A stretch of DNA of 64,000 nucleotides from Verrucomicrobiota bacterium (lineage in GTDB: Bacteria; Verrucomicrobiota; Verrucomicrobiia; Limisphaerales; JACQFS01): positions 143-64,142 of the forward strand of contig JACQFS010000170.1 of assembly GCA_016199935.1 (NCBI GenBank), given 5' to 3'. This document shows positions 5,711-64,000 of this stretch, one piece after another (within the stretch, counting starts at the first letter, position 1; each line of letters begins with the position of its first letter). The translations under genes were made by a program, and so were the position numbers. The notes under the pieces are model-generated. The model was not told the origin of the DNA. It saw only the letters and a program-made list of their open reading frames with translations, and ran no database searches.

Positions 5711-5784
5711 GCGGGTGTGGTTCAATGGTAGAATGTGGGCTTCCCAAGCCTGAGACGAGGGTTCGATTCCCTTCACCCGCTCCA
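5711..5784 (+). tRNA. tRNA-Gly (CCC)
   Basis: Acceptor stem GCGGGTG/CACCCGC, anticodon loop TTCCCAA, T-loop TTCGATT, encoded CCA. Confidence 0.97.
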
Positions 5785-7935: not shown

Positions 7936-8250
7936 TGCGACGATCTGAACTCAAATCGTGGCTGGTCAGACTCAAGCGACGGTGATCTGAACCCAACCTG
8001 CCGCGGTCTGAACTCAAACTGCCGCGTTTCGAACTCAAACCGCGGCAAGTTGGATTCAAACTGTGACGATCTGAACTCAACCAGCCGCAAGTTGGATTCA
8101 AACTGCCGGAATCTGAACTCAAACTGCGGCGATTTGGACTCAGATCGCGGTGATTTGGACCCAGATCGTGACGATTGGGACCCAGATTGCGACGATTTGG
8201 ACCCAGATTGCGACGATTTGGACTCAGATCGCGACGATCAAAGTCTGAAT
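7936..8250. repeat. Degenerate 21-bp tandem array A, about 15 units
   Basis: Units such as TGCGACGATCTGAACTCAAAT and TGCGACGATTTGGACCCAGAT at an exact 21-nt period with no indels. Confidence 0.9.
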
Positions 8251-8578
8251 TCCACGCACTTTAGACCAGTTATCCACTTCCAAACACGATATTTACGTCG
8301 CTTTACGTCAGCTTCAGCCTGCCGCCCCACGTCCGGTGTCCAGCCAGAACCGGCGTTTCCCCGGGCTTTGAACCGTGCTTATCCGGTTTGTTGGCATTGA
8401 AGGAATTTAGCTCCTAAAGCGCATCGCGAGACCGCGCGATCCCTCCGTCTTGCCGCCACGGGGCGCGCTGCCGAACGGCGGGGAGGTTGTTCATTGTATT
8501 ATGGAAACGCGCCCCCCCCCACTCGATCAAAGCGAACCGCGGAGCAAGCACGAGTTGGGCTACCAATTCGATGTCTGC

Positions 8579-10050: not shown

Positions 10051-10223
10051 GGCGACGCTCAGATTTGTTTAAGCATCTGCGGCAGCAGTGATAAGAGAGG
10101 AATGGTTTGCATGAAGCAAAAGGAAAATTTCACTTTGTCAGCGAACCGGATAAGCGTGCTTTGAACTTTGAGCTTTGAACTTTCCCCCGGCGTCTCTAGC
10201 GTCCGCCCGCAAAACCACGCGCC

Positions 10224-14569: not shown

Positions 14570-14774
14570 GGCGGGGTTTGTAATTCAGAACCGGCGCGGT
14601 GTCAGCAAGCCAGTGCCGCAGGCACGAAAGAAAATAGCCCCGGTTTTCAAGCCGGGGTTTGCAGCGGGAGAGTGCGAGTCCCGTCAGGGACGAGAGAAGG
14701 ATGAACGAAATTTTTCTGCCGGCCCTTCGGGACTCGGGGCCGGAACTGCCGGCAGGATGCCGGCGGCACGTTGG

Positions 14775-21818: not shown

Positions 21819-22146
21819 GGAGCGCGGCCTTTAGGCCGCTTCATCGTTCGGACGCCCACCGGCCGGTCGTTTCATCCCTGCCCGTCGAACGCTGAAGCGA
21901 CCTGAACCGGGACGATGCAGTTGGAAATGGGGAGCGCGGGCACCTCGCCCGCTGTTTCCGGGGAGCGCGGGCGCCCCGCCCGCTGTTTCCGGCGCCCTCG
22001 CCGGAAACTTCGGACGCCGCGAGCGTCCACCAAACCGTGACCGCTCCTCGCGCCCGGCCAACCGGCGAGGGCGCCGGTTGGCAACGCCCGGGGCGGGCGT
22101 GCTCCCCATTTCCTACTGCGTCGTTCCCGCTAAAGGCCGCGCTCCG
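21819..22146. repeat. Nested REP-like elements with a local tandem duplication
   Basis: Outer arms GGAGCGCGGCCTTTAG / CTAAAGGCCGCGCTCC; inner GGGGAGCGCGGGC..CGCCCGCTGTTTCC duplicated near 21929-21990. Confidence 0.55.
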
Positions 22147-23277: not shown

Positions 23278-23334
23278 CGCTAACGATCCAAGCTGAGCGG
23301 CCGCGGAGCCGTTCGCGGCAGCGCATGGTCAGGG
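23278..23334 (-). other. attC site (short, degenerate) ending cassette 2
   Basis: Minus strand CCCTGACCATGCGCTGCCGCG...GCTCAGCTTGGATCGTTAGCG; arms homologous to the attC at 23965; toxin stop codon lies in the inverse core. Confidence 0.7.
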
Positions 23335-23688
23335 GACGGTTCGTTCACCAGCGGCTTCCTGAAGGTAGCTGGCTAGACGACGCAGCAAACGGGTGTGCCG
23401 CTCGGATGAGATGGAGCCGATGTCGCCCAAGAATTCATCGGCAGGTAACAGCGCGAGAAAACCCAGGCGGATGAGTGATGTGCTCGTCAAGCCGCTCGAC
23501 GGAAAATCGGAGTCGGTCGGAGAAATAATCTCGTCGAAGTCGGCGACTTGGTGACGCAACTGGCGGCTGATGCCGCAAATGAGCAGGTCGCCAAACGGAC
23601 GCATCACCCGCAAAACGATTGCCGGTCGGTTCTTGGTCTTGCCGTCGGCCTGCTCGAACGCGGTGAGCACTACATCGCCCTCTTTCAT
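23329..23688 (-). CDS. PemK/MazF-family toxin
   Basis: MKEGDVVL..QADGKTKNRPAIVL..DLLICGIS..SGL..SLIR. Confidence 0.85.
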   Translation of the reverse strand: MKEGDVVLTAFEQADGKTKNRPAIVLRVMRPFGDLLICGISRQLRHQVADFDEIISPTDSDFPSSGLTSTSLIRLGFLALLPADEFLGDIGSISSERHTRLLRRLASYLQEAAGERTVP

Positions 23689-23915
23689 TTGGCGGCGGGC
23701 GTCCGCACCAGGCTCGCCGGATAATCTGGCTCGTCGTCCGAATACGCGCGCGCCAGACCCGCTTTGGAGAGCGCATACCACTGCTGCCGCTCGGCGTCGG
23801 ACAAGGTCTCGGGCAGAATCGTTACGAGCAGCCGGGCGTCGGCAGGTAGCACGAACGGCTCGTCGAGTTGGATGTGGTCGCCGTTGACGTGGGCGGTAAG
23901 AGTGACGGCCTTCAT
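23685..23915 (-). CDS. Putative antitoxin (76 aa)
   Basis: Upstream of the toxin with ATGA overlap; beta-rich N-terminus and acidic tail LARAYSDDEPDY. Confidence 0.75.
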   Translation of the reverse strand: MKAVTLTAHVNGDHIQLDEPFVLPADARLLVTILPETLSDAERQQWYALSKAGLARAYSDDEPDYPASLVRTPAAK

Positions 23916-23964
23916 GGGGGGCACTGTATTCGGTGGGCTCGTCGCGGGCAAGCACGTAAAGTCG

Positions 23965-24057
23965 GCCTAACGACCCAAGCTCAGCGACCCGGCACACGGG
24001 ACGCAACGATTGCAACCGCGACGCTCCCGCCGGGTTCGCTGCAGCGCATGGTTAGGC
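23965..24057 (-). other. attC site ending cassette 1
   Basis: 93-bp imperfect palindrome bounded by GCCTAAC and GTTAGGC (RYYYAAC/GTTRRRY). Confidence 0.9.
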
Positions 24058-24622: not shown

Positions 24623-24710
24623 GCCCGTTCCCTCGCCGAAAAGTGTCCCAACGGGACATTCTGTCGTAAATCCCTCATTGCAAGCGGCTTAACATGTTAA
24701 TCACGCGCCT

Positions 24711-24962
24711 TTTCCCTCCTCGGAAGCGTCGTTTCCCTCCTCGGGAACGACGTTCCCGTCCACGGAGACCACGTTTCCGACCACGGGAACGACGTTTCCG
24801 AGGAGGAATGCGTCGTTTCCACGCCGGGAGTCGGCGGCTCCTTGGAGGGGCGCGCCGCTTCCCTGCGGAGCAGCGAGGCGTCCCTGCATGGAAACCGGGC
24901 TTGTCTGCGGGGTGGTCGCGTCACCTTGGAGGGAAGAGGCGCGACTGCGGAGGGTGACGCAG
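24711..24962. repeat. Degenerate 21-bp tandem array B, about 12 units
   Basis: TTTCCCTCCTCGGAAGCGTCG, TTTCCCTCCTCGGGAACGACG, TTTCCGACCACGGGAACGACG...; decays rightwards. Confidence 0.85.
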
Positions 24963-25034
24963 CGTTCGTGGTGGGAGGCTCCGGCTTGCTGTCCTCAGCG
25001 AGTCGCAAAACCATCTTCCGCGTTTGGTCGGCCC

Positions 25035-25168
25035 GCCCTCACCCCGGCCCTCTCCCGGGGGGAGAGGGAGAATCGTTCCGCAGCCGTGGAGGTTCCGAAC
25101 GCGTCCGGCCTTCGCCGAAGCTGAGTGCGTTTCCCCCTCTCCCGCCGGGAGAGGGCAGGGGTGAGGGC
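25035..25168. repeat. Inverted REP pair (CCCTCACCCCGGCCCTCTCCC family)
   Basis: Left arm with GGGAGAGGG hairpin and the complementary right arm. Confidence 0.7.
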
Positions 25169-25399
25169 GGAATTACCAAGGGCGTCCGGTCTGGTCGGGG
25201 TGCGCTGAGGACGGTGCCCCCTGCCTTCCCGCCCTGCACCCGGCCGGGCCGCGCGGCGCGCGGTGAACAACCTGTGAATACTTTCCAATAACTTTGCGTT
25301 GGCTTTTTTCCAGGCTTCGGGGAAAACGCTCCCGTTCACCGCACCCACAGGAGGAGCAGTGCATTCATCCCCAAACCAGCAACCAGTCCGGCCACGGCC

Positions 25400-26107
25400 A
25401 TGCAACTGTTTTACGACTCCGCGACGCCCGTTTTCTACGACGCGCCCACGAGCCATTACGACAGCGGTGCCGCGGAGCCGATCCTACGTAAAATGAAAAA
25501 AATAAAAGCTGACAGCCGCAACCTCCCCGTCCCGAACAAAGTCCTCAAGGGCCAGGAGGTCGCCGGCAAACTCGCGGCCAACGCGGCGCTCCCGCAAATG
25601 GCCGCCTTCTCCGCCACCCTCCTGACCGCCACGACGCTGATGGACAACGACTACAAGGCGGCCGTCGCCGCCGCCGACACCGCCAAGCAGCTCTTCAACG
25701 CCGCGCGCGTCTCCGAGTCGGCGTGGGACACGCTCTACGTGCAGGGCGCGGCGGACGTGAACAAATTCGGCACCACCGAGGCCGTCCGCCTCAGCAGCGG
25801 CTACCCGCTCGAATCCGACCGCACGCCCATCGGCCCGCTGCCCGCCCCGGCGAACTTCACCGTCACCTTCGGCGACATGCCGGGCACGCTCTCCTTCACC
25901 ATGGACCCGGTGAAGGGCGCCAAGACGTATCTGATCGAGCTCGCCACGGCGGCCACCGGCCCCTTCACGCAGGTGCTGGTCAGCACGTCGTCCGACGGCG
26001 TGGTGCCGGGCCTGACGAGCGGCACGGTTTATTATCTGCGCGCCAAGGCCGTCGGCGCCGCGGGCACCGGCGCGGCGAGCGACATCGCCATGAAGATGGC
26101 ACCCTAG
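25400..26107 (+). CDS. Helical-bundle + C-terminal fibronectin type III domain protein with aromatic leader
   Basis: Ala-rich helices, then PAPANF..GTLSFTMDPVKGAKTYLIE..GLTSGTVYYLRAKAVGAAGTG..SD (FN3 pattern); alternative start 25493. Confidence 0.85.
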   Translation: MQLFYDSATPVFYDAPTSHYDSGAAEPILRKMKKIKADSRNLPVPNKVLKGQEVAGKLAANAALPQMAAFSATLLTATTLMDNDYKAAVAAADTAKQLFNAARVSESAWDTLYVQGAADVNKFGTTEAVRLSSGYPLESDRTPIGPLPAPANFTVTFGDMPGTLSFTMDPVKGAKTYLIELATAATGPFTQVLVSTSSDGVVPGLTSGTVYYLRAKAVGAAGTGAASDIAMKMAP

Positions 26108-26380
26108 AATCCGGGCGGACCCAGCGGCCGGCGAGAATCCTCCCGCCGTCACCGCCGTCCGCCCTCCAAGGAGGCGGGACGGGACACCACGGTGCCGTGA
26201 AACAAAACCCCGCCCCACCAAACAGACGGAGCGCGGCACGTTGGCCGCGACGGGACTTGGAGAGGTCTTATGAATCTCCAGCCGGTATGAAATGAAGACC
26301 CGTCGGGCGTCCGCGCCCGCGCTCCGTCCCCTGACGAAACACTTTCCGCCTTACCTCTTACCGCCCACCCCTTGCCGCCT

Positions 26381-26794
26381 ATGCCCTTCGATCCCACCAA
26401 GCCCGCGACCGACGCCCCGCTGCTCTCCGCCGAACTGCGCGCGCAGTTCAACGGCCTGCGCGACGACCTCCACGCCGAAATCACCACCATCCCGCAGGGC
26501 CCACCCGGCAACGACGGCGCGGACGGCCTTCCCGGCGACAAGGGAGACAAAGGCGACAAGGGCGATTCCGGTGACAAAGGGGACAAGGGCGACCCGGGGA
26601 ACACTGGCGCGACCGGCGAGGTGACGACCGTGCAGTTGAACGAGGCGCTCAACACGGCCATCGCCGGCACGAGCAGCAACACGAACGCCGTGCCGACGCT
26701 GGACACGCCCTTCGTCAACGACCCGCCCACGCTCGCGGACATGGAACTGATGCGCGCGGCGTATAACGCGCTCGTGCTGGCGATGCGTCGGTAA
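26381..26794 (+). CDS. Collagen-like (Gly-X-Y) protein, copy 1
   Basis: About 14 GXY triplets (GDK-rich); termini homologous to 60679-61200. Confidence 0.85.
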   Translation: MPFDPTKPATDAPLLSAELRAQFNGLRDDLHAEITTIPQGPPGNDGADGLPGDKGDKGDKGDSGDKGDKGDPGNTGATGEVTTVQLNEALNTAIAGTSSNTNAVPTLDTPFVNDPPTLADMELMRAAYNALVLAMRR

Positions 26795-43060: not shown

Positions 43061-44788
43061 TCACTTCCCCGCGCGCCAGTCGAGCAGCTTCAACTGGAGC
43101 GACACGCGGCCGTTGTATTCGTTGCGCTCGGGCGCGAAGGCAAGGTCGAAATTTCCCTCTGGCATCTTCGAGTCGCCGCAGCGCCACCACACGACCTCGT
43201 GCGTGACGCCGTCGCCAGTGACGAACAGTTTTGCGTGCTGCTGCTCGCGGCCCATGCGCTGCGGCGGGCGCGCGAGGCGCAGGCCGCGCATCAGGAATTG
43301 CAACGGCGGGTTGCCCTGACCGAAGGGGTTGAGTTGTTCAAGCTCGTCCAGCAGGCCGAGCGTAAGGTCGCGCGCCGAAAGCTCCGCGTCGAGCCGAAGC
43401 ACGGGGCGAAGCTGGTCGGGCGAGAGCGAGCGTTGGACGAGTTCGTTCAGGCGCGTGCGCAGCGCGTCCACGTTTTTCGGATGGATCGAGAGACCCGCGG
43501 CCATCGCGTGGCCGCCGTGGCGCAACAGCAAATCGTCACACGCGCGCAGTCCGGCGGCGAGGTCGAAGCCCTCGATGCTCCGACCCGAGCCGCGCCATTC
43601 GTGACCGTCGCCGCCGAGGACGATGGTCGGCCGGTAAAATTCGCGAAGCACGCGCGAGGCAACAATGCCGACGACACCGACGTGCCACATCATCTCGCCC
43701 TCGACGATGGCGAAGTCGCGCGCGGGGTCGAAGCTCTGGCGCAACCGCGCGGTGAGATTGTCGGCGATGCCGCGCTCGATGTCCTGCCGCTCGCGGTTCC
43801 GAGCATCAAGTGAGTGCGCGATGGGCAGCGCGTCTTCGAGCGAGCGGGCGAGGACGAGATCGAGCGACTCCTCGGCGGTTTCGAGGCGGCCGGCGGCGTT
43901 GAGGCGCGGGCCGAGTTGAAAACCGACTTCATACACGCCCACGTCGCCTTTCACTGCCGCGACTTCCTTCAGCGCCACGAGGCCGGGGCGCGTCGTGCTC
44001 GTGAGCCGGAGCAGGCCGGCGTGGACGAGGATGCGGTTTTCTCCGACGAGCGGCACGAGATCGGCGACGGTCGCAAGCGCGACGAGGTCGAGCAGCGGCT
44101 TGAGATCAAAGGCGTCGGCGCCCGCGAGGCCGGTGGCGCGTCCGTGTTTGAGCAGGGCGTGGGCGAGCTTGAAGGCGAGGCCGGCGGAGCAGAGTTCCGT
44201 GAAGGAAGTTGAGGGTTGAGAGTTGAGAGTTGAGAGCTGCGGATTCACGAGCGCCACGGCGGCGGGCGCGGGTGAGCTGACCTGGTGATGATCGAGCACG
44301 ATGACATCCACGCCGCGTTCGCGGAGCCACGCGATGGTCTCCACGGCGGTCGAGCCGCAGTCCACGGCGAGCAGCAGCTTCACCGGAAATTTTTGCAGGC
44401 ACTTCTCCACGCCGTCGCGCGTGAGGCCGTAGCCCTCGGCCATTCGGTGCGGGAGATATTGGTGAACCTTCCAGCCGAGCGCGCCGAGCACCTCGGTGAG
44501 CAGCGCGGTGGAGCAGACACCGTCCACGTCGTAATCGCCGAAGATGACGAGCGGCTCATCCGACGCCCGCGCGCCGAAAAGACGCTCGACGGCGGCGCGC
44601 ATATTCGGAAGCAGGAACGGGTCGGCGAGATTTTTCAGGCGCGGCGCGAGGAAGGCGGCGGCGGACTCGACCGAAGTGTGACCGCGGTTGACGAGGCATT
44701 GCGCAAGCAGGGGCGGAAGCGCGAGCGGTGTGGCGAGCTGGTTCACGAGCAACGGCTGCGGGGCCGCAAGTGACCAGCGGAATTTCAT
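43061..44788 (-). CDS. recJ: ssDNA-specific exonuclease RecJ
   Basis: GDYDVDG, VDCG, DHH, GPRLNAAGR, GSGRS, GGHAMAAG. Confidence 0.96.
   Translation of the reverse strand: MKFRWSLAAPQPLLVNQLATPLALPPLLAQCLVNRGHTSVESAAAFLAPRLKNLADPFLLPNMRAAVERLFGARASDEPLVIFGDYDVDGVCSTALLTEVLGALGWKVHQYLPHRMAEGYGLTRDGVEKCLQKFPVKLLLAVDCGSTAVETIAWLRERGVDVIVLDHHQVSSPAPAAVALVNPQLSTLNSQPSTSFTELCSAGLAFKLAHALLKHGRATGLAGADAFDLKPLLDLVALATVADLVPLVGENRILVHAGLLRLTSTTRPGLVALKEVAAVKGDVGVYEVGFQLGPRLNAAGRLETAEESLDLVLARSLEDALPIAHSLDARNRERQDIERGIADNLTARLRQSFDPARDFAIVEGEMMWHVGVVGIVASRVLREFYRPTIVLGGDGHEWRGSGRSIEGFDLAAGLRACDDLLLRHGGHAMAAGLSIHPKNVDALRTRLNELVQRSLSPDQLRPVLRLDAELSARDLTLGLLDELEQLNPFGQGNPPLQFLMRGLRLARPPQRMGREQQHAKLFVTGDGVTHEVVWWRCGDSKMPEGNFDLAFAPERNEYNGRVSLQLKLLDWRAGK
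44208..44235. repeat. Heptamer repeat (GTTGAGR x4) inside recJ
   Basis: GTTGAGG GTTGAGA GTTGAGA GTTGAGA, encoding LSTLNSQPST. Confidence 0.8.
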
Positions 44789-60276: not shown

Positions 60277-60662
60277 GCGCCGATCCGCTGCCCAAGCTCG
60301 TCGAGGAACTCGGCATCCATTCCTACCGCCGCCACATTTTTCTCTGTGCGGATCAGACGGAGGCGAAATGCTGCGCGAAGGAAGCCGGCCTCGCCTCGTG
60401 GGAATTTCTCAAGCGCCGGCTCAAGGAACTCGGCCTCGCCGGGCCGAACCCGCTCATCTATCGCTCCAAGGCCAACTGCCTGCGCGTCTGCACGCGCGGT
60501 CCCGTGGCCGTCGTCTATCCCGAGGGCGTCTGGTATCACGGCTGCACGCCGGAAGTTCTGGAGCAGATCATCCAGTCGCACCTCATCAAGGGCAAACCCC
60601 TCGCGACGCACGCCTTCGCCGAGAACCCGTTCTTCGCCGGCATCGTGCGGCGGGGAAAATAG
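60273..60662 (+). CDS. Thioredoxin-like [2Fe-2S] ferredoxin
   Basis: [27 protein letters not shown]. Confidence 0.9.
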
Positions 60663-60678
60663 CTTCCGAGGAAATGTT

Positions 60679-61200
60679 TTATCGCCGCGCGGCAGTGATA
60701 AACTCGTTGACCTTGTCAATCAGCGCTTGGACCACGGGGTCTGAATGCGTGTCTGGGATAAGATCAACAGCGTTTGTATTGTTGCTTGTTCCATTCACGG
60801 CGTTGGCGAGGGCATCCGTCATCTGCTGATTCGTGACTTCGCCGGGCAGACCCTGCGTCCCGTCGTGCCCGCGCGGGATGCCGAAGGTGAAATGCACGTT
60901 GCCGTCGAAACTGACCGCCACGGTCGCGGGATCGTCGGGATTGAGAGTATTCACCCCGTCAACAAACGCGTTGGCAAATGGCGGCCCTTGCGTTCCAGGC
61001 GTGCCATCGTTGCCCGGATCACCCTTGTCGCCTTTGTCGCCGCCATCCCCTTTGTCTCCCTTGTCGCCTTTTTCGCCTGGGTCACCTTTGTCACCTTTTG
61101 GAATGGCGGTGAGGCCGTCGTTGAGCGCGTTCAGTTGGGCGCGCATTCCATCGCCATCCAGTGGATCGCCGTTCTGCGGATAATTCGGATTGAAGGGCAT
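60679..61200 (-). CDS. Collagen-like (Gly-X-Y) protein, copy 2
   Basis: GDK-rich triplets; shared MPF.P, RAQ.N.L, GEVT, GTS.NTNAV and terminal A.RR with 26381-26794. Confidence 0.87.
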   Translation of the reverse strand: MPFNPNYPQNGDPLDGDGMRAQLNALNDGLTAIPKGDKGDPGEKGDKGDKGDGGDKGDKGDPGNDGTPGTQGPPFANAFVDGVNTLNPDDPATVAVSFDGNVHFTFGIPRGHDGTQGLPGEVTNQQMTDALANAVNGTSNNTNAVDLIPDTHSDPVVQALIDKVNEFITAARR

Positions 61201-61240
61201 AATTTAGAGTGGTTGAAGTTGTGGTGGGCGGGTTTCAGAT

Positions 61241-61576
61241 CGGTTTGGACAGGTTTCCATCCGGTTCGAAAACATTTCTAATCGGTTTAAACACATTTCT
61301 TTTCTCGTCGGAAGGGTTTCCAAACGGTTTGGAAACCCTCCTTTTCGGTTTGGACACTTTTCCCACGGCTCGGAACACGTTTCCCATCGGTTTGGAAGGC
61401 TGCCTTTTTCATTTGGAAACCCTTTCCATCGGCTGGGAAGGCTGTCGGAAGCGTTTGGAAACTCTCCTTTTTCGTTTGGAAATCCTTCCAACCGGTTTGG
61501 ACGCCTGCTTTTTGACTTCGGAACGCTGTCCAAAGTGTTTGGGCAGGCGCCCAAACGGCCGGAAGACCCTTTTCAG
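61241..61576. repeat. Degenerate 21-bp tandem array C, about 16 units
   Basis: CGGTTTGGACAGGTTTCCATC, CGGTTTGGAAACCCTCCTTTT, TCATTTGGAAACCCTTTCCAT... at an exact 21-nt period. Confidence 0.9.
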
Positions 61577-62049
61577 GGGTTCGGCGGGGTGGGCGGAGTG
61601 TTGTCGCCCCCGTTGTTCGGGCCGCGACCGCGGAGGGACTTGCGGATGCGGGTGCCTTCCTTCGCTTCCACCGAGCGGGAGCCGAGCTTGCTGATGGCCG
61701 TGGTGAGCGCATCGCTACCGTCCATGTAGCCGCCGTCGCAGGCCGCGTTGACAGCGGTCGTCTTGTTGGCGAGGTCGGTCTTCAACTTCTCCTGATCGGA
61801 GTCGAGCTTGCTCAGGGCCGTGGCGGCAGCGCGGGCGGTCGCGATGTCGTCGGTGGGGTCATACTTCTTCGCCTGAAGCTGAACTTTATACTTGTCCAGA
61901 AAGTCGGCGACCTCGTTGAGGAAGCCGATACACTGCGTTACATTAACGGCAGCCATATGCTTTTTCCTTTCATTTTGTTGTTCCTGCCCACCCCATGTAA
62001 GCCCGCGCTGTCCCCAGCGCCGGGAAGGCTTCCATGTCAAGGTTGGCAT
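61573..62049 (-). CDS. Small helical-bundle protein with Trp-rich leader and Pro-rich tail
   Basis: MPTLTWKPSRRWGQRGLTWGG leader, amphipathic helices, TPPTPPNP end; alternative start 61956. Confidence 0.8.
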   Translation of the reverse strand: MPTLTWKPSRRWGQRGLTWGGQEQQNERKKHMAAVNVTQCIGFLNEVADFLDKYKVQLQAKKYDPTDDIATARAAATALSKLDSDQEKLKTDLANKTTAVNAACDGGYMDGSDALTTAISKLGSRSVEAKEGTRIRKSLRGRGPNNGGDNTPPTPPNP

Positions 62050-62062
62050 GGCTGCCAAGAAG

Positions 62063-62077
62063 GCATAACGCGTGCCA
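62063..62077 (-). promoter_or_regulatory. Probable sigma-54 promoter
   Basis: Minus strand TGGCAC-GCGTT-ATGC, 13 nt before ATG 62049. Confidence 0.55.
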
Positions 62078-62217
62078 ACTCAGAATTGAGAAATGGTTTC
62101 CAACCTGCTAGCGATGTCTATAGCGAAGGCAACCGTCCCTAACGGAAGTCTGAATAGCACCGCGTCATTCACCTTGGATGGAAGCCGGACTGATGTCGTC
62201 GCTCAGTCCAAAAACCT

Positions 62218-63297
62218 TCATTCTGGTCCGGATCGCTTGAGTTCAAGCGCTGGATCAAATTCGAGATTTCTAGAACCCCTGGGGTTAACATAGGCAAGTA
62301 TTCCAAAATGCGCGCGATCATTGGCTGTCACTAGCATCTTCACGTATCCAAATTTCCCGCTTTTGAGTCGAAAATAATAGCTCTGCTCCACTTGGTCAAA
62401 CCAGCGCGAGTCGTTTGCCGTCCTGATTATCTCCATTGCTGGTTTATATCCTTGCTCTGGGGCTTGGAAAGGAAATTCCTCGAGAGCTTCGACAAGTCCG
62501 CCACCAAGCACGCTGATTTTAACCTGCCAATCGTATTTGAGCCGGAAATCCAGCTTTCCGAGCGGAGCGATGAGTTCGACACGCATATCGCCCATTCCCA
62601 GCACCGTTTGTTTTCCCGTTTCCAATGATATTTCAATCGGGTTGCCATCTCGCGGCAACGGATATGTTAGCCATTTTCCGATCCCTGGCTGTTTCAAGAC
62701 AACGAGCGGCTCCGCTTTACCCTTCTTTCGAAGGCGAAAGATCACAGGCTGAGAGACGTCCGGGTGAAACGGCCCATCCGGGTCACCATAAGTAAATCCT
62801 CGTGGGTTGTCACGATACGGGTAGTAACCCTCCTTTGAGACACTCACTCCAAGATCATAGCCCTTAGCCCCGGAAAGTTGGAAAAACCCGTCTCCATTCG
62901 ATTTTGCAGCTTGCCGCGAAGTTCCATCCGCGGATAAGTCTGTCCAGATAAATACGACATCAGCCTCGGCGATTGGGTTTTCATTTTCATCCACTACTTT
63001 GCCGAAGAAATCAATCGGCGTGCGCCATCTTTCTGCCATCTGTTCAGGAGCCGCATCTCGCGCGGCTTTGCGCAAGGCCAGCCATTCTGGCACGGAATTA
63101 CTATTAAGAAGGTGCCTGGGCGTGCCCGACGATTGCGGAAATGTTGGAGGGCGAAGCGCAGGAGGGTTGCTTTGTAGGCAAACGCTAGAACTAATTCTGG
63201 GTTCTGGAACGTATCGTTTGGCACGTAAATCGACAAACCACCAAGCCGCACAAAACAAAACCAGCGCGCATCCAAATAAAATTGTTCTCCGTCTCAT
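62218..63297 (-). CDS. Exported protein with carboxypeptidase-regulatory-like beta domain
   Basis: N-terminal TM/signal; PIDFFGKVVDENENPIAEADV..DGFF..VSKEGYY; low GC. Confidence 0.75.
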   Translation of the reverse strand: MRRRTILFGCALVLFCAAWWFVDLRAKRYVPEPRISSSVCLQSNPPALRPPTFPQSSGTPRHLLNSNSVPEWLALRKAARDAAPEQMAERWRTPIDFFGKVVDENENPIAEADVVFIWTDLSADGTSRQAAKSNGDGFFQLSGAKGYDLGVSVSKEGYYPYRDNPRGFTYGDPDGPFHPDVSQPVIFRLRKKGKAEPLVVLKQPGIGKWLTYPLPRDGNPIEISLETGKQTVLGMGDMRVELIAPLGKLDFRLKYDWQVKISVLGGGLVEALEEFPFQAPEQGYKPAMEIIRTANDSRWFDQVEQSYYFRLKSGKFGYVKMLVTANDRAHFGILAYVNPRGSRNLEFDPALELKRSGPE

Positions 63298-63299
63298 AG

Positions 63300-64000
63300 C
63301 TAAAAGGGTGAGATTCCGAAGCTGCTAAGCACCTGCTGCCAGTATGGGCCAGCGCCCTGAATAGGATAAGCAAACTGAGCACTATGTTCCGTCCGTTCTC
63401 TGCCAAAATTGAATGGCGGCGCATTGAGGTTCACCGAAGCCTGTATCACTCCCGCCATGTTGTCCTGCGCCCCGACCGCTCGCGAGCGGCTTCGCGCAAC
63501 AAATGATTTGGCTATATGCAAGTCTGTAACAAAATTGGAAACTGTAACCAATGGTGTGCTCTGTAAATACCATGATTGCCGCGTGTTTGTATTAAAACCC
63601 CATGAATCGATTACACCTCCGTAAGTGTAATATTCTGGTTTGTAATTCTCTTGGTTGGCTTCCCAATTAGTTTCGAGAAATTCAGTGCAAAAACCCTTTG
63701 CTAACGCATAATCGTTTGTGTTGTAAAAGCTAATGATTCTTCCCGTCAAATTCGTAAAACACCCGTGATAACCGCCCTCTTGATATGTAAATGGGGTCTG
63801 TTGACCAGCCTCGGACTCTTTATTCAGAAATCGCTGCAAAAATGGTGCATTTGTTGAATAGCAGTGCGCAGGCGCTGCGGCTTGAGAAAGAATAAAGTCA
63901 TCAAACGGTGCACCTTGCCTGAGCGCCTCGCTTACAACAATGTTTCCTTGGCTGTGGCCGAGGATGTGAATTGAGTAATCTTTCAAGCGAGATGTCGTCC
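63300..64000 (-). CDS. C-terminal part of an alpha/beta hydrolase (runs off the window edge)
   Basis: HILGHSQGN nucleophile elbow, QAA, YNTNDYAL, terminal HSA; frame open to the window end; low GC. Confidence 0.8.
   Translation of the reverse strand, partial: TTSRLKDYSIHILGHSQGNIVVSEALRQGAPFDDFILSQAAAPAHCYSTNAPFLQRFLNKESEAGQQTPFTYQEGGYHGCFTNLTGRIISFYNTNDYALAKGFCTEFLETNWEANQENYKPEYYTYGGVIDSWGFNTNTRQSWYLQSTPLVTVSNFVTDLHIAKSFVARSRSRAVGAQDNMAGVIQASVNLNAPPFNFGRERTEHSAQFAYPIQGAGPYWQQVLSSFGISPF

Follow-up and report, generated by a model that had tools for sequence, protein, structure and literature searches.

The 64,000-nt stretch of DNA analyzed in this study (hereafter the window) is located on contig C5 of a groundwater verrucomicrobial metagenome-assembled genome (MAG; 5.03 Mb, 260 contigs, 64% GC), and carries at positions 60679-62077 a collagen-like gene, a gene for a helical protein and, in between, a tandem array of 21-bp units with internal dyads. 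This locus is one of about 25-30 small cassettes, each consisting of an optional helix-turn-helix (HTH) gene, a 21-bp dyad array, a gene for a leader-bearing helical protein with or without a fibronectin type III (FN3) domain, and a collagen-like gene. C-numbers designate contigs of this source genome (G000), and G001, G003, G005, G056 and G317 are other genomes used for comparison; genes were called with an ad hoc codon-usage caller. The features of the locus are as follows.

60679-61200, minus strand: collagen-like gene, 173 aa (open reading frame (ORF); Pfam Collagen 31.6 bits, cut-off 27.2)
61225-61560, minus strand: 21-bp array of 16 head-to-tail units, 336 bp (Tandem Repeats Finder (TRF), sequence and register analysis)
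61573-62049, minus strand: leader + helical gene, 158 aa (start ATG 62049-62047, stop TGA 61575-61573)
62063-62077, minus strand: sigma-54-like -24/-12 motif TGGCAC-GCGTT-ATGC (TGGCACGCGTTATGC), 14 nt upstream of the leader ATG

The first-pass annotation of this DNA had placed about 16 units of 21 bp between the stop codon of the helical gene and the collagen-like gene, and this was borne out by the sequence, TRF and shuffling, which gave 16 units running from 61560 to 61225. The array begins 12 nt past the TGA of the helical gene and stops 24 nt short of the collagen ATG. The sequence identity at a lag of 21 nt was 0.489, against a mean of 0.256 (sd 0.024, maximum 0.34) for 2000 mononucleotide shuffles, and was 0.24 and 0.23 at lags of 19 and 23, respectively; the identity of 0.56 at a lag of 63 indicates a higher-order repeat of three units (63 bp). 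The unit consensus, about AACCG...GGAAA....TTTCCA, contains an internal dyad, the best example of which is AGGGTTTCCAAACGGTTTGGAAACCCT at 61313-61339. The GC content of the 400-nt segment 61200-61599 is 50.7%, and the array folds with a z-score of -5.1. Since the units are contiguous and have no unique spacers, the array is not a CRISPR array. Rfam gave no match within 60679-62077, and the ORFs spanning the array gave no Pfam match and were not called by the codon-usage caller. Neither a sigma-70-like site within 60600-62300 nor a minus-strand terminator between the helical and collagen-like genes was found. Contig pieces covering the array in four groundwater runs of one study were all identical to the window, with 0 gaps, a comparison of low power that includes contigs only and probably a single population. 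Among RNA runs, none was listed as containing the locus.

The collagen-like protein begins with an N-terminal helix (MPF.P...MRAQLNAL) and a G-X-Y run, continues with a three-strand insert (PPFANAFVDGV...FTFGIPRG) and a second short G-X-Y run, and ends with a C-terminal helical domain (GEVT...NTNAV...ARR). Its monomer model, which is of low confidence (predicted local distance difference test, pLDDT, 60), includes helices at residues 16-32, 124-138 and 155-172 and strands within 78-108. Both this protein and the second collagen-like protein of the window (26372-26794) score above the cut-off of 27.2 bits for PF01391 (31.6 and 34.0 bits, respectively), and no signal peptide was recognized by eye on the N-terminus of either, no predictor being run.

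The true start of the helical gene is probably the ATG at 62049-62047 rather than the internal Met at 61956, as judged from the sequence. The leader encoded in between carries three aromatic-D/N/G motifs (TLTW..RWG..LTWGG), and is followed by a basic stretch with an internal Met (KKHM), a helical domain and a basic, Pro-rich tail. An AGGA-type Shine-Dalgarno (SD)-like sequence precedes the internal Met, and the entry of this protein in the public protein collection, 127 aa in length, starts from the same Met. The leader seems to be translated, because a homologue of 63% identity keeps TLTW, WGQ and GLTWGG in frame with different neighbouring residues, and because the aromatic and D/N/G positions vary in a manner that conserves residue class, not nucleotides. 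The gene may have two alternative start sites, or its leader may be cleaved off. Paralogues of the helical protein are encoded on C12 and C185. This protein has no FN3 domain and belongs to no family of Pfam, PHROG, NCBIfam or PADLOC, the last giving generic HTH matches only; a homologous-protein search of the public collection gave one relative. Searches of the ESM Atlas yielded only clusters of 'hypothetical protein'.

The consensus of sigma-54 promoters is composed of GG and GC elements, TGGCAC-N5-TTGC, and both elements are present in TGGCACGCGTTATGC at 62077-62063. The sigma-54-like promoter that the first-pass annotation had recognized before the helical gene is thus present as a motif, but it is not a feature of the family: even a looser pattern precedes no more than 2 of the 30 leader genes, the motif being therefore peculiar to this copy, and sigma-54 was rejected as the family promoter. 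Over the whole genome, both strands included, there are 23 matches to the strict pattern.

The same three component types were said to recur at 24711-26794, and this was upheld by the identification of an array (24711-24820), a helix + FN3 gene (25400-26107) and a collagen-like gene (26372-26794), forming a second cassette. In addition, an 'orphan' array at 7984-8238, missing from the first-pass annotation, was detected in the window.

24680-24844, strand not specified: second-cassette 21-bp array of about 5-8 units, unit TTTCCCTCCTCGGAAACGACG (TRF 24711-24820; autocorrelation C5:24822-24986)
25400-26107, plus strand: leader + helical hairpin + FN3 gene of the second cassette, 235 aa
26372-26794, plus strand: second-cassette collagen-like gene, 140 aa (Pfam Collagen 34 bits, cut-off 27.2)
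7957-8266, strand not specified: orphan 21-bp array of about 12-15 units (TRF 7984-8238; autocorrelation C5:8099-8408)

The AlphaFold2 model of the 25400-26107 protein, made on an alignment of 12 paralogues (pLDDT 77), consists of a disordered region (residues 1-43), helices (44-123) and a beta domain (150-235). The beta domain (pLDDT about 90) matched FN3 structures in Foldseek with an E value of 1e-7, and its FN3 fold is recognized by the model and Foldseek together; the Pfam fn3 score is 14.3, below the cut-off of 25. The Foldseek matches in PDB and BFVD were limited to the FN3 part, a homologous-protein search returned this protein itself only, and a representative-protein search with the helix + FN3 alignment returned giant multi-FN3 proteins only and was uninformative. 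The start of the 26372-26794 gene is likely the Met of MPFDP, three codons inside the listed ORF. The non-collagen termini claimed to be common to both collagen-like proteins of the window are indeed seen in an alignment of 14 paralogues. The orphan array includes higher-order repeats of 42 and 84 bp, and is located between convergent genes with neither a cassette nor an HTH gene as neighbour. Upstream of the second-cassette array, two minus-strand ORFs, 23329-24015 and 23685-23951, overlap each other; by eye, no family search being run, we take them to resemble a PemK/MazF-type toxin and a small antitoxin.

That the cassettes constitute a dispersed multi-copy system was substantiated by tblastn with the two collagen-like proteins, which detected about 25 collagen-like loci in the source genome, and by gene clustering, which gave 22 collagen genes. 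Next to these 22 copies lie unrelated genes. For counting the association, arrays detected by TRF and by autocorrelation were merged, intragenic arrays were removed, and those of at least 84 bp within 2.5 kb of a gene were taken, with all called genes as the background. Non-coding arrays were found near 15 of the 22 collagen genes, against 7.1% of all genes (binomial p 6e-13), and the array is located 5' of the collagen gene in all 15 associated cases. Of the seven collagen genes not counted as associated, five are preceded by only 32-1447 bp before the contig ends, and the arrays of the other two (C212 and C177) were masked by the filter. The assembly is fragmented, and since many cassettes touch contig ends, the arrays appear to break assemblies.

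The usual order of a cassette, on one strand, is array, 'middle' gene and collagen gene; the order of helical gene, array and collagen gene is found in the present copy, C12 and C185, and in the C247 cassette the array lies between divergent genes. The middle genes, of 158 to about 364 aa, belong to several BLAST families but have one common layout: a leader with three aromatic-D/N/G motifs (for instance MPTPLTWNG...PLRWGDPGLVWGG, and PTLTWKPSRRWGQRGLTWGG in the present copy), a basic stretch, an internal Met, a helical domain and often a C-terminal FN3 domain. The junction of basic stretch and internal Met hardly varies among 12 paralogues. Of the 61 regex matches, about 20 can be recognized as leader genes, nearly all of them 5-556 bp downstream of an array, and arrays often stop 5-90 bp short of the next start codon. 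The collagen-like proteins, 126-206 aa in length, share an N-terminal helix with the consensus MPFDP..P...MRAQFNALHDEIT.IP.G in the 14-paralogue alignment, either one or two runs of G-X-Y, an insert present in 8 of the 14 aligned paralogues, PPFANA.VD.VNTLNPDDPATV..FDGNVHFTFGIPRG, and a C-terminal domain, GEVT..QL...AGTS.NTNAV..LDTPF..DPPTLAD.E.MR.AYN.LVLA.RR. The spacers between middle and collagen genes often contain pyrimidine-rich heptamer repeats, for instance CTTACCY or TTCATCC. The 40 nt before most collagen ATGs (for instance on C97, C2, C149, C238 and C237) are likewise G-poor, pyrimidine-rich heptamers, the G content before collagen ATGs being 13.9% against 25.4% for all genes. An SD-like motif was found in 13.8% of 1482 genes, and the organism therefore seems to be largely SD-independent.

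The period of 21 bp is a property of the whole genome. By TRF, a total of 173 rows were obtained for period 21 and 47, 18 and 12 rows for periods 42, 63 and 84, against 10 and 13 rows for periods 20 and 22. By autocorrelation, 65 arrays (12.4 kb) were detected at lag 21, against 0-3 at lags 17, 19, 20, 22, 23 and 25; lags 18, 24 and 27, which are multiples of 3, gave 11-23 arrays, mostly coding repeats. A total of 62 non-coding 21-bp arrays of at least 84 bp remained, their borders being threshold-dependent. The unit sequence differs from array to array, and the period, which corresponds to about two turns of B-DNA, the internal dyad and the phased A-tracts persist. The best-centre dyad complementarity was 0.50 on average, against 0.42 for column-permuted arrays, and a value of 0.5 or higher was obtained for 30 of the 54 arrays compared, but for only 15 of 162 controls with permuted columns. 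The A/T bases are grouped in tracts once or twice per unit, AAAA being found in 13 arrays (1.8 expected), CAAA in 14 (1.6) and GGAAA in 8 (0.3); the enrichment of GGAA/GGAAA gave rise to the idea of a CsrA sponge with GGA motifs. Upon folding, the arrays gave mean z-scores of -5.8 and -6.1 against shuffles on the two strands, with no strand bias, the sense strand being lower in 10 of 24 arrays. A GTAG tag was found in 0 arrays (2.0 expected), and CGTC in 7 (4.8 expected). A heptad substructure of the units was rejected, the identity at lag 7 (0.256) and at lag 14 (0.259) being near the background of about 0.25, and the 21-bp arrays are thus not built from heptamers. The idea of 21-nt guide RNAs was dropped because Piwi (PF02171) was not found in the genome.

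Each unit sequence is found in only 1-3 arrays, which form families of two or three. Within a family the arrays are 78-84% identical over 130-312 bp, the similarity ending at the array borders with the flanks not shared. The arrays on C58 and C256 are colinear, with 70% identity in register against 58-61% within each, and those on C171 and C245 have been homogenized separately, the identity at lag 42 being 0.89-0.90 within each and about 0.70 between the two.

Heptamer tandem repeats are also over-represented in this genome, with 352 TRF rows for period 7 against 36 for period 6 and 93 for period 8. After merging, there are 205 non-coding heptamer arrays of many different units, 120 of them within 120 bp upstream of a start codon; examples in the window are at 44207-44236 (AGTTGAG x4.3) and 10159-10183 (CTTTGAA x3.6). 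These heptamer arrays are reminiscent of the STRR heptamers of cyanobacteria. Matches to Y1 (IS200/RAYT-type) transposases above the Pfam cut-off are located at C260:28053-28397, C171:20597-20941, C184:15627-15962 and C16:6972-7190, and by the array lists none of the four adjoins a 21-bp array.

The enrichment of arrays and helical/FN3 genes beside collagen homologues, on which the first-pass proposal of a recurrent module depended, was observed not only in the source genome but also in other genomes and in metagenomes; the compared genomes are kin and not independent. With the whole collagen protein, two of 30 relatives gave matches: G001, which belongs to the same family (14 matches), and G003, from a different family within the order (7 matches). 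When a C-terminal-domain profile was used on 400 further genomes of the phylum, two gave matches, and these belong to one genus. The layout recurs in three other verrucomicrobial genomes, and arrays of lag 21 or 42 were detected in 9 of 18 loci (G001, G003, G056 and G317), with none at lags 17, 19, 20, 22, 23, 25 and 26. The locus G003-L161 is an orthologue of the C185 cassette (helical protein 59% identical) and has the same order as the present copy, that is, helical gene, array and collagen gene. The locus G003-L163 is an orthologue of the C168 cassette (middle protein 71% identical) and is syntenic with it on one side (neighbour 79% identical), the array thus being kept across GTDB families; the 42-bp units of L163 and C168 are identical at 22 of 42 positions in phase, and, by eye in this one pair, both keep a hairpin-capable dyad via different stems. 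Samples of 322 kb of G003 and of 363 kb of G005, a genome of the same order without collagen matches, contained four true 21-bp arrays and heptamer-based arrays plus one 21-bp array of 4 units, respectively, and are too small to show the co-distribution of arrays and cassettes.

A pattern scan for the C-terminal domain yielded 52 metagenome loci, which contain 16 arrays of lag 21 and two of lag 22, and none at eight other lags that are not multiples of 3. Of these 18 arrays, 17 are located upstream of the collagen ORF and not inside it; after merging, 17 arrays are upstream and none downstream of the collagen gene. An array is present in 10 of the 22 metagenome loci that have at least 1.5 kb of upstream sequence. 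A further 80 loci from a profile search of genome contigs were discarded as generic collagen genes of many phyla, detected through GDKGDKGD. The named relatives in the databases come from Verrucomicrobiota MAGs, Prosthecobacter among them, and are labelled as 'hypothetical' or 'collagen-like'.

Small HTH genes adjoin 10 or 11 arrays, the XRE-type genes just 5' and the ArsR-type genes just 3' of the array. The ArsR-type genes form a family of four members.

C81:6994-7323: ArsR-type winged-HTH gene, array upstream
C193:4552-4893: ArsR-type winged-HTH gene, array upstream
C255:2962-3351: ArsR-type winged-HTH gene, array upstream
C256:112507-112917: ArsR-type winged-HTH gene, array upstream

All four are located 76-204 bp downstream of an array. 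Two of the four proteins gave HTH_5 scores of 28.0 and 23.1 (cut-off 22), the other two being below all cut-offs (HTH_20 23.1 and 18.6, cut-off 27), and one array of G003 is likewise followed by an ArsR-type gene. ORFs of about 100 aa of the XRE/Cro type are located directly 5' of the cassette arrays on C2, C236, C188 and C168, on the cassette strand, with HTH_3 scores of 35.9 for C2 and 23.4 for C236 (cut-off 23) and weak scores for C188 and C168. A local XRE profile matched nine ORFs genome-wide, of which six are within 400 bp of an array, a space that covers 1.3% of the genome (p 3e-10), and a seventh is beside the masked C177 array. Weaker XRE-type matches were obtained at C188, C168, C80, C228, C177 and G003-L163. 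The order of XRE gene, array, leader gene and collagen gene is repeated in the metagenome locus L225 (HTH_3 29, cut-off 23), and a weak HTH_3 match of 19.1, below the cut-off, is present at the orthologous place in G003. Arrays of different loci are linked to these regulator genes by short common sequences: the C185 cassette array shares 28 10-mers with the C255 ArsR-linked array, the C168 cassette array 26 with the C193 ArsR-linked array, and the array at 61225-61560 ten with the C255 array, against a background in which at least four are common in 60 of 1240 array comparisons. Upon alignment, a core CAAAC(C/G)G.TGGGA is common to the array at 61225-61560, the C255 ArsR-linked array and the C185 cassette array.

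Judged from these sequence features, the arrays may serve as phased operators, bound by small dimeric HTH regulators that control expression of the paralogous fibre genes; we adopt this interpretation tentatively, as the best of those considered but at slightly less than even odds. It fits best because the period is of two turns, each unit has a dyad, the sequence is locus-specific with the dyad kept, folding has no strand bias, and HTH genes are adjacent. The first-pass annotation had considered the array as either a structured RNA or a phased DNA-binding array; DNA binding is now the better supported of the two, by the HTH genes adjoining 10-11 arrays and the lack of a strand preference in folding, an RNA role being the less likely. 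Each unit would have its dyad occupied by one HTH dimer, the dimers lining a single face of the helix and polymerizing cooperatively, and binding of the XRE/Cro-type regulators encoded 5' of the arrays, or of the ArsR-type regulators encoded 3', would switch transcription of the fibre genes on or off. In the present copy, in which there is no room for a separate promoter or terminator, the occupied array might gate transcription of the collagen gene, whether by read-through or from a start inside the array. For this copy we propose control in trans, because the core is common with the C255 ArsR-linked and C185 arrays.

A number of observations weigh against the operator interpretation. A recognized HTH neighbour is present at only 10-11 of the 62 arrays, and none is found in the window beside the present copy; no HTH-like ORF was seen by eye, with no family scan, upstream of the arrays in G001-L157 and G003-L162, and the candidate ORFs in L218 and L264 gave no Pfam match. 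The XRE genes, upstream of the array, point in its direction, whereas in classical autoregulated switches the regulator gene is divergent. In G003, a genome that is 90% complete, the orthologue of the C185 array is without a partner array, and a dedicated regulator site in trans is therefore not universal. Many of the orphan arrays are found where genes converge or at 3' ends, places that offer no obvious target for an operator. In the present copy, C12 and C185, the array is inside a probable bicistronic transcript, which fits an RNA role equally well. In addition, the excess of dyads over the permuted controls is moderate, and the ad hoc gene calls are a weakness.

Such an RNA role would be that of an element like the repetitive extragenic palindromes (REPs) or bacterial interspersed mosaic elements (BIMEs), the hairpins of a transcribed 5' untranslated region or intercistronic region setting mRNA stability, read-through or translation of the fibre gene. 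This is rather unlikely, even though the array fills the gap between co-oriented genes in the present copy, C12 and C185 with no sigma-70-like promoter or minus-strand terminator in between, the distance from an array to the following start codon is often just 5-90 bp, the arrays fold strongly (mean z about -6; -5.1 at this locus), orphan arrays resemble REPs in their location at 3' ends and between convergent genes, and, with an SD-like motif in only 13.8% of the 1482 genes, unusual leaders may matter. The sense strand, however, folds lower in just 10 of 24 arrays, the GTAG (0 against 2.0 expected) and CGTC (7 against 4.8) tags are not enriched as such a tag would be, each unit sequence is in 1-3 arrays and not in hundreds of copies, there is no Rfam match, and the adjacent HTH genes, the strict two-turn period and the phased A-tracts are left unexplained. 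Were the arrays instead selfish or neutral minisatellites, spread by local amplification and ectopic copying with no function of their own, one would expect what is seen in partner arrays, 78-84% identical over 130-312 bp with the similarity stopping at the array borders, in the duplication of a whole array (C58/C256), in the homogenization within arrays (C171, C245), and in a genome with 205 non-coding heptamer arrays and four Y1-transposase genes. We nevertheless consider this unlikely, since the array is always 5' of the cassette genes (15:0 in the source genome and 17:0 in metagenomes), is kept with its dyad at an orthologous syntenic position (C168/G003-L163) and has a period of exactly 21 across the lineages examined; moreover, the lack of a lag-7 or lag-14 signal argues against derivation from heptamers, and by the array lists no array is near the Y1 genes on their contigs.

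Phase variation, in which gain or loss of units by slippage alters promoter geometry and switches single fibre cassettes, would account for tandem repeats that precede the many paralogous genes for putative surface fibres, for unit numbers of about 4 to 25 between loci and for the heptamer repeats directly before many collagen start codons; it is very unlikely, given the limited similarity between units (only about 50-80%), which speaks against frequent slippage, and the 0 gaps in the array across the four groundwater runs, a test of low power. That the array is itself protein-coding, either as a peptide of heptad repeats or as part of an extended neighbouring gene, is hardly credible: several frames are open, such as 61204-61554 (minus strand, 116 aa with a 7-aa repeat), but they are open on both strands at once, as expected of a stop-free repeated unit, they gave no Pfam match, most arrays were not called by codon usage, and the variable columns have, by eye, no 3-nt pattern.

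Tandem arrays bound by small dimeric proteins are known in parC/ParR of plasmid R1, sopC/SopB of F, tubC/TubR of pBtoxis and the omega heptads of pSM19035. The present arrays resemble these partition and operator arrays in their short head-to-tail dyad units, usually upstream of a small operon with a small HTH gene adjacent, in the combination of locus-specific sequence with common architecture, and in a phasing that suggests cooperative coating of one face of DNA. Unlike partition centromeres, they are chromosomal and amount to about 60 per genome, the binding is proposed from sequence, the downstream genes are collagen-like and helical, and many arrays have no adjacent gene for a binder. The cassette and the flanking small genes gave HTH or no Pfam matches and no ATPase such as a partition NTPase, for which a genome-wide search was not made. 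Mycobacterial minisatellites of the MIRU type also fill operon spacers with tandem repeats, from near a stop codon to near the next start as in the present locus, and have units of 40-100 bp of one sequence family; to our knowledge, they have neither dyad nor two-turn phasing, and we know of no link to HTH genes.

As to REPs and BIMEs, tandemly reiterated REPs, and REPs of the GTAG type in the verrucomicrobium O. terrae, have been described (PMC3733652). The present arrays are similar to these elements in being short, extragenic, clustered palindromic units at intercistronic and 3' sites with hairpins on both strands, in a genome with Y1 genes, and their stem-loop capacity agrees with this (mean folding z about -6; dyad excess 30/54 against 15/162). 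They differ from REPs and BIMEs in having no GTAG/CGTC tag, 1-3 arrays per sequence, a strict contiguous 21-bp period and a systematic 5' position. No such arrays or cassettes were described in the literature searched.

The collagen-like proteins share with Scl1/Scl2, Lcl, BclA and the collagens of phage tail fibres the arrangement of G-X-Y repeats flanked by non-collagen N- and C-domains. The insert of the FTFGIPRG type presumably resembles phage-fibre collagens. Unlike these proteins, they are short (126-206 aa), with no signal peptide or LPXTG recognized by eye, and unlike phage tail fibres they are encoded in about 25 dispersed copies without phage neighbours. No phage gene was found beside the roughly 25 collagen copies in the neighbourhood maps of 22; with the queries tried, tblastn with both proteins against 50,697 phage records gave no match, and the IMG/VR viral contigs gave no relative. 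The matches to tail-fibre families in PHROG (1e-9 to 1e-12) were driven largely by the collagen run, and the helix + FN3 protein matched PHROG 6977, 'minor tail protein', with 3.7e-6; these matches are a hint of a distant phage-fibre ancestry. The NCBIfam Scl/Lcl models gave scores of 17-35 bits (best 25.7-35.1) from the G-X-Y part only, against cut-offs of 325-500, and the proteins are thus outside those families. After searches of Pfam, PHROG, NCBIfam, PADLOC, phage records and viral contigs, the proteins could not be assigned to a characterized family or prophage remnant, an assignment that would have counted against the first-pass proposal.

In the simplest view, the collagen-like protein would form a short fibre of three chains that starts with a helix at the N-terminus and carries a helical head at the C-terminus, and we infer a trimeric collagen-stalk fibre together with a partner or adaptor. 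The predicted complex of three collagen chains with the helical protein scored 0.34, against 0.08 for the best control, with at least 90% of the contacts agreeing between runs and a partner pLDDT of at least 66. Of 80 solved complexes, 58 attained the mark set for such scores, as did 2 of 110 mismatched pairs; at scores of 0.60 or below, it was attained by only 7 of the 80 solved complexes and by both of the passing mismatches; this complex is therefore only weakly suggested by the model, passes at such scores being wrong more often than right.

Beside the cassette, the stretch 62000-64000 is low in GC (44-52%, against 64% for the genome) and is possibly acquired DNA. It includes a gene at 62218-63297 (minus strand) for a CarboxypepD_reg-like protein (Pfam 26.7 bits, below the cut-off) and a further ORF at 63300-63986, both missed by the codon-usage caller. 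Elsewhere in the window, Rfam identified an Acido-Lenti-1 small RNA at 14612-14657 (minus strand; 45.2 bits, gathering threshold 37) and a tRNA at 5711-5781 (plus strand), and a 31-bp unit, GGGGAGCGCGGGCACCCCGCCCGCTGTTTCC, is repeated 2.1 times at 21929-21992 with 93% matches.

Three uncharacterized families of Verrucomicrobiota are defined by this analysis: the short collagen-like proteins with conserved termini, the helical proteins with a three-aromatic leader, and the small array-linked ArsR-type proteins. The annotation of MAGs is affected as well, because assemblies break at the arrays and gene callers start the helical proteins at the internal Met. As an extension of the operator interpretation that we regard as improbable, the about 60 arrays might form an addressable silencing network, in which cognate small HTH proteins, polymerizing into long, phased nucleoprotein filaments on family-specific 'barcode' arrays, would hold most of the 25-30 fibre cassettes silent and allow one or a few to be expressed at a time, with the orphan partner arrays as sites of titration or hand-over; if true, this would be a bacterial repeat-array analogue of mutually exclusive surface-gene expression. 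If the arrays are operator platforms, they would represent an unusually large and regular cis-regulatory architecture, with tens of loci per genome, 4-25 dyads of locus-specific sequence spaced by two turns at each, and a link of all of them to a single family of putative fibre genes, and would offer a natural system for the cooperativity of HTH filaments, the co-evolution of regulator and operator, and the control of about 25 paralogous fibre genes.

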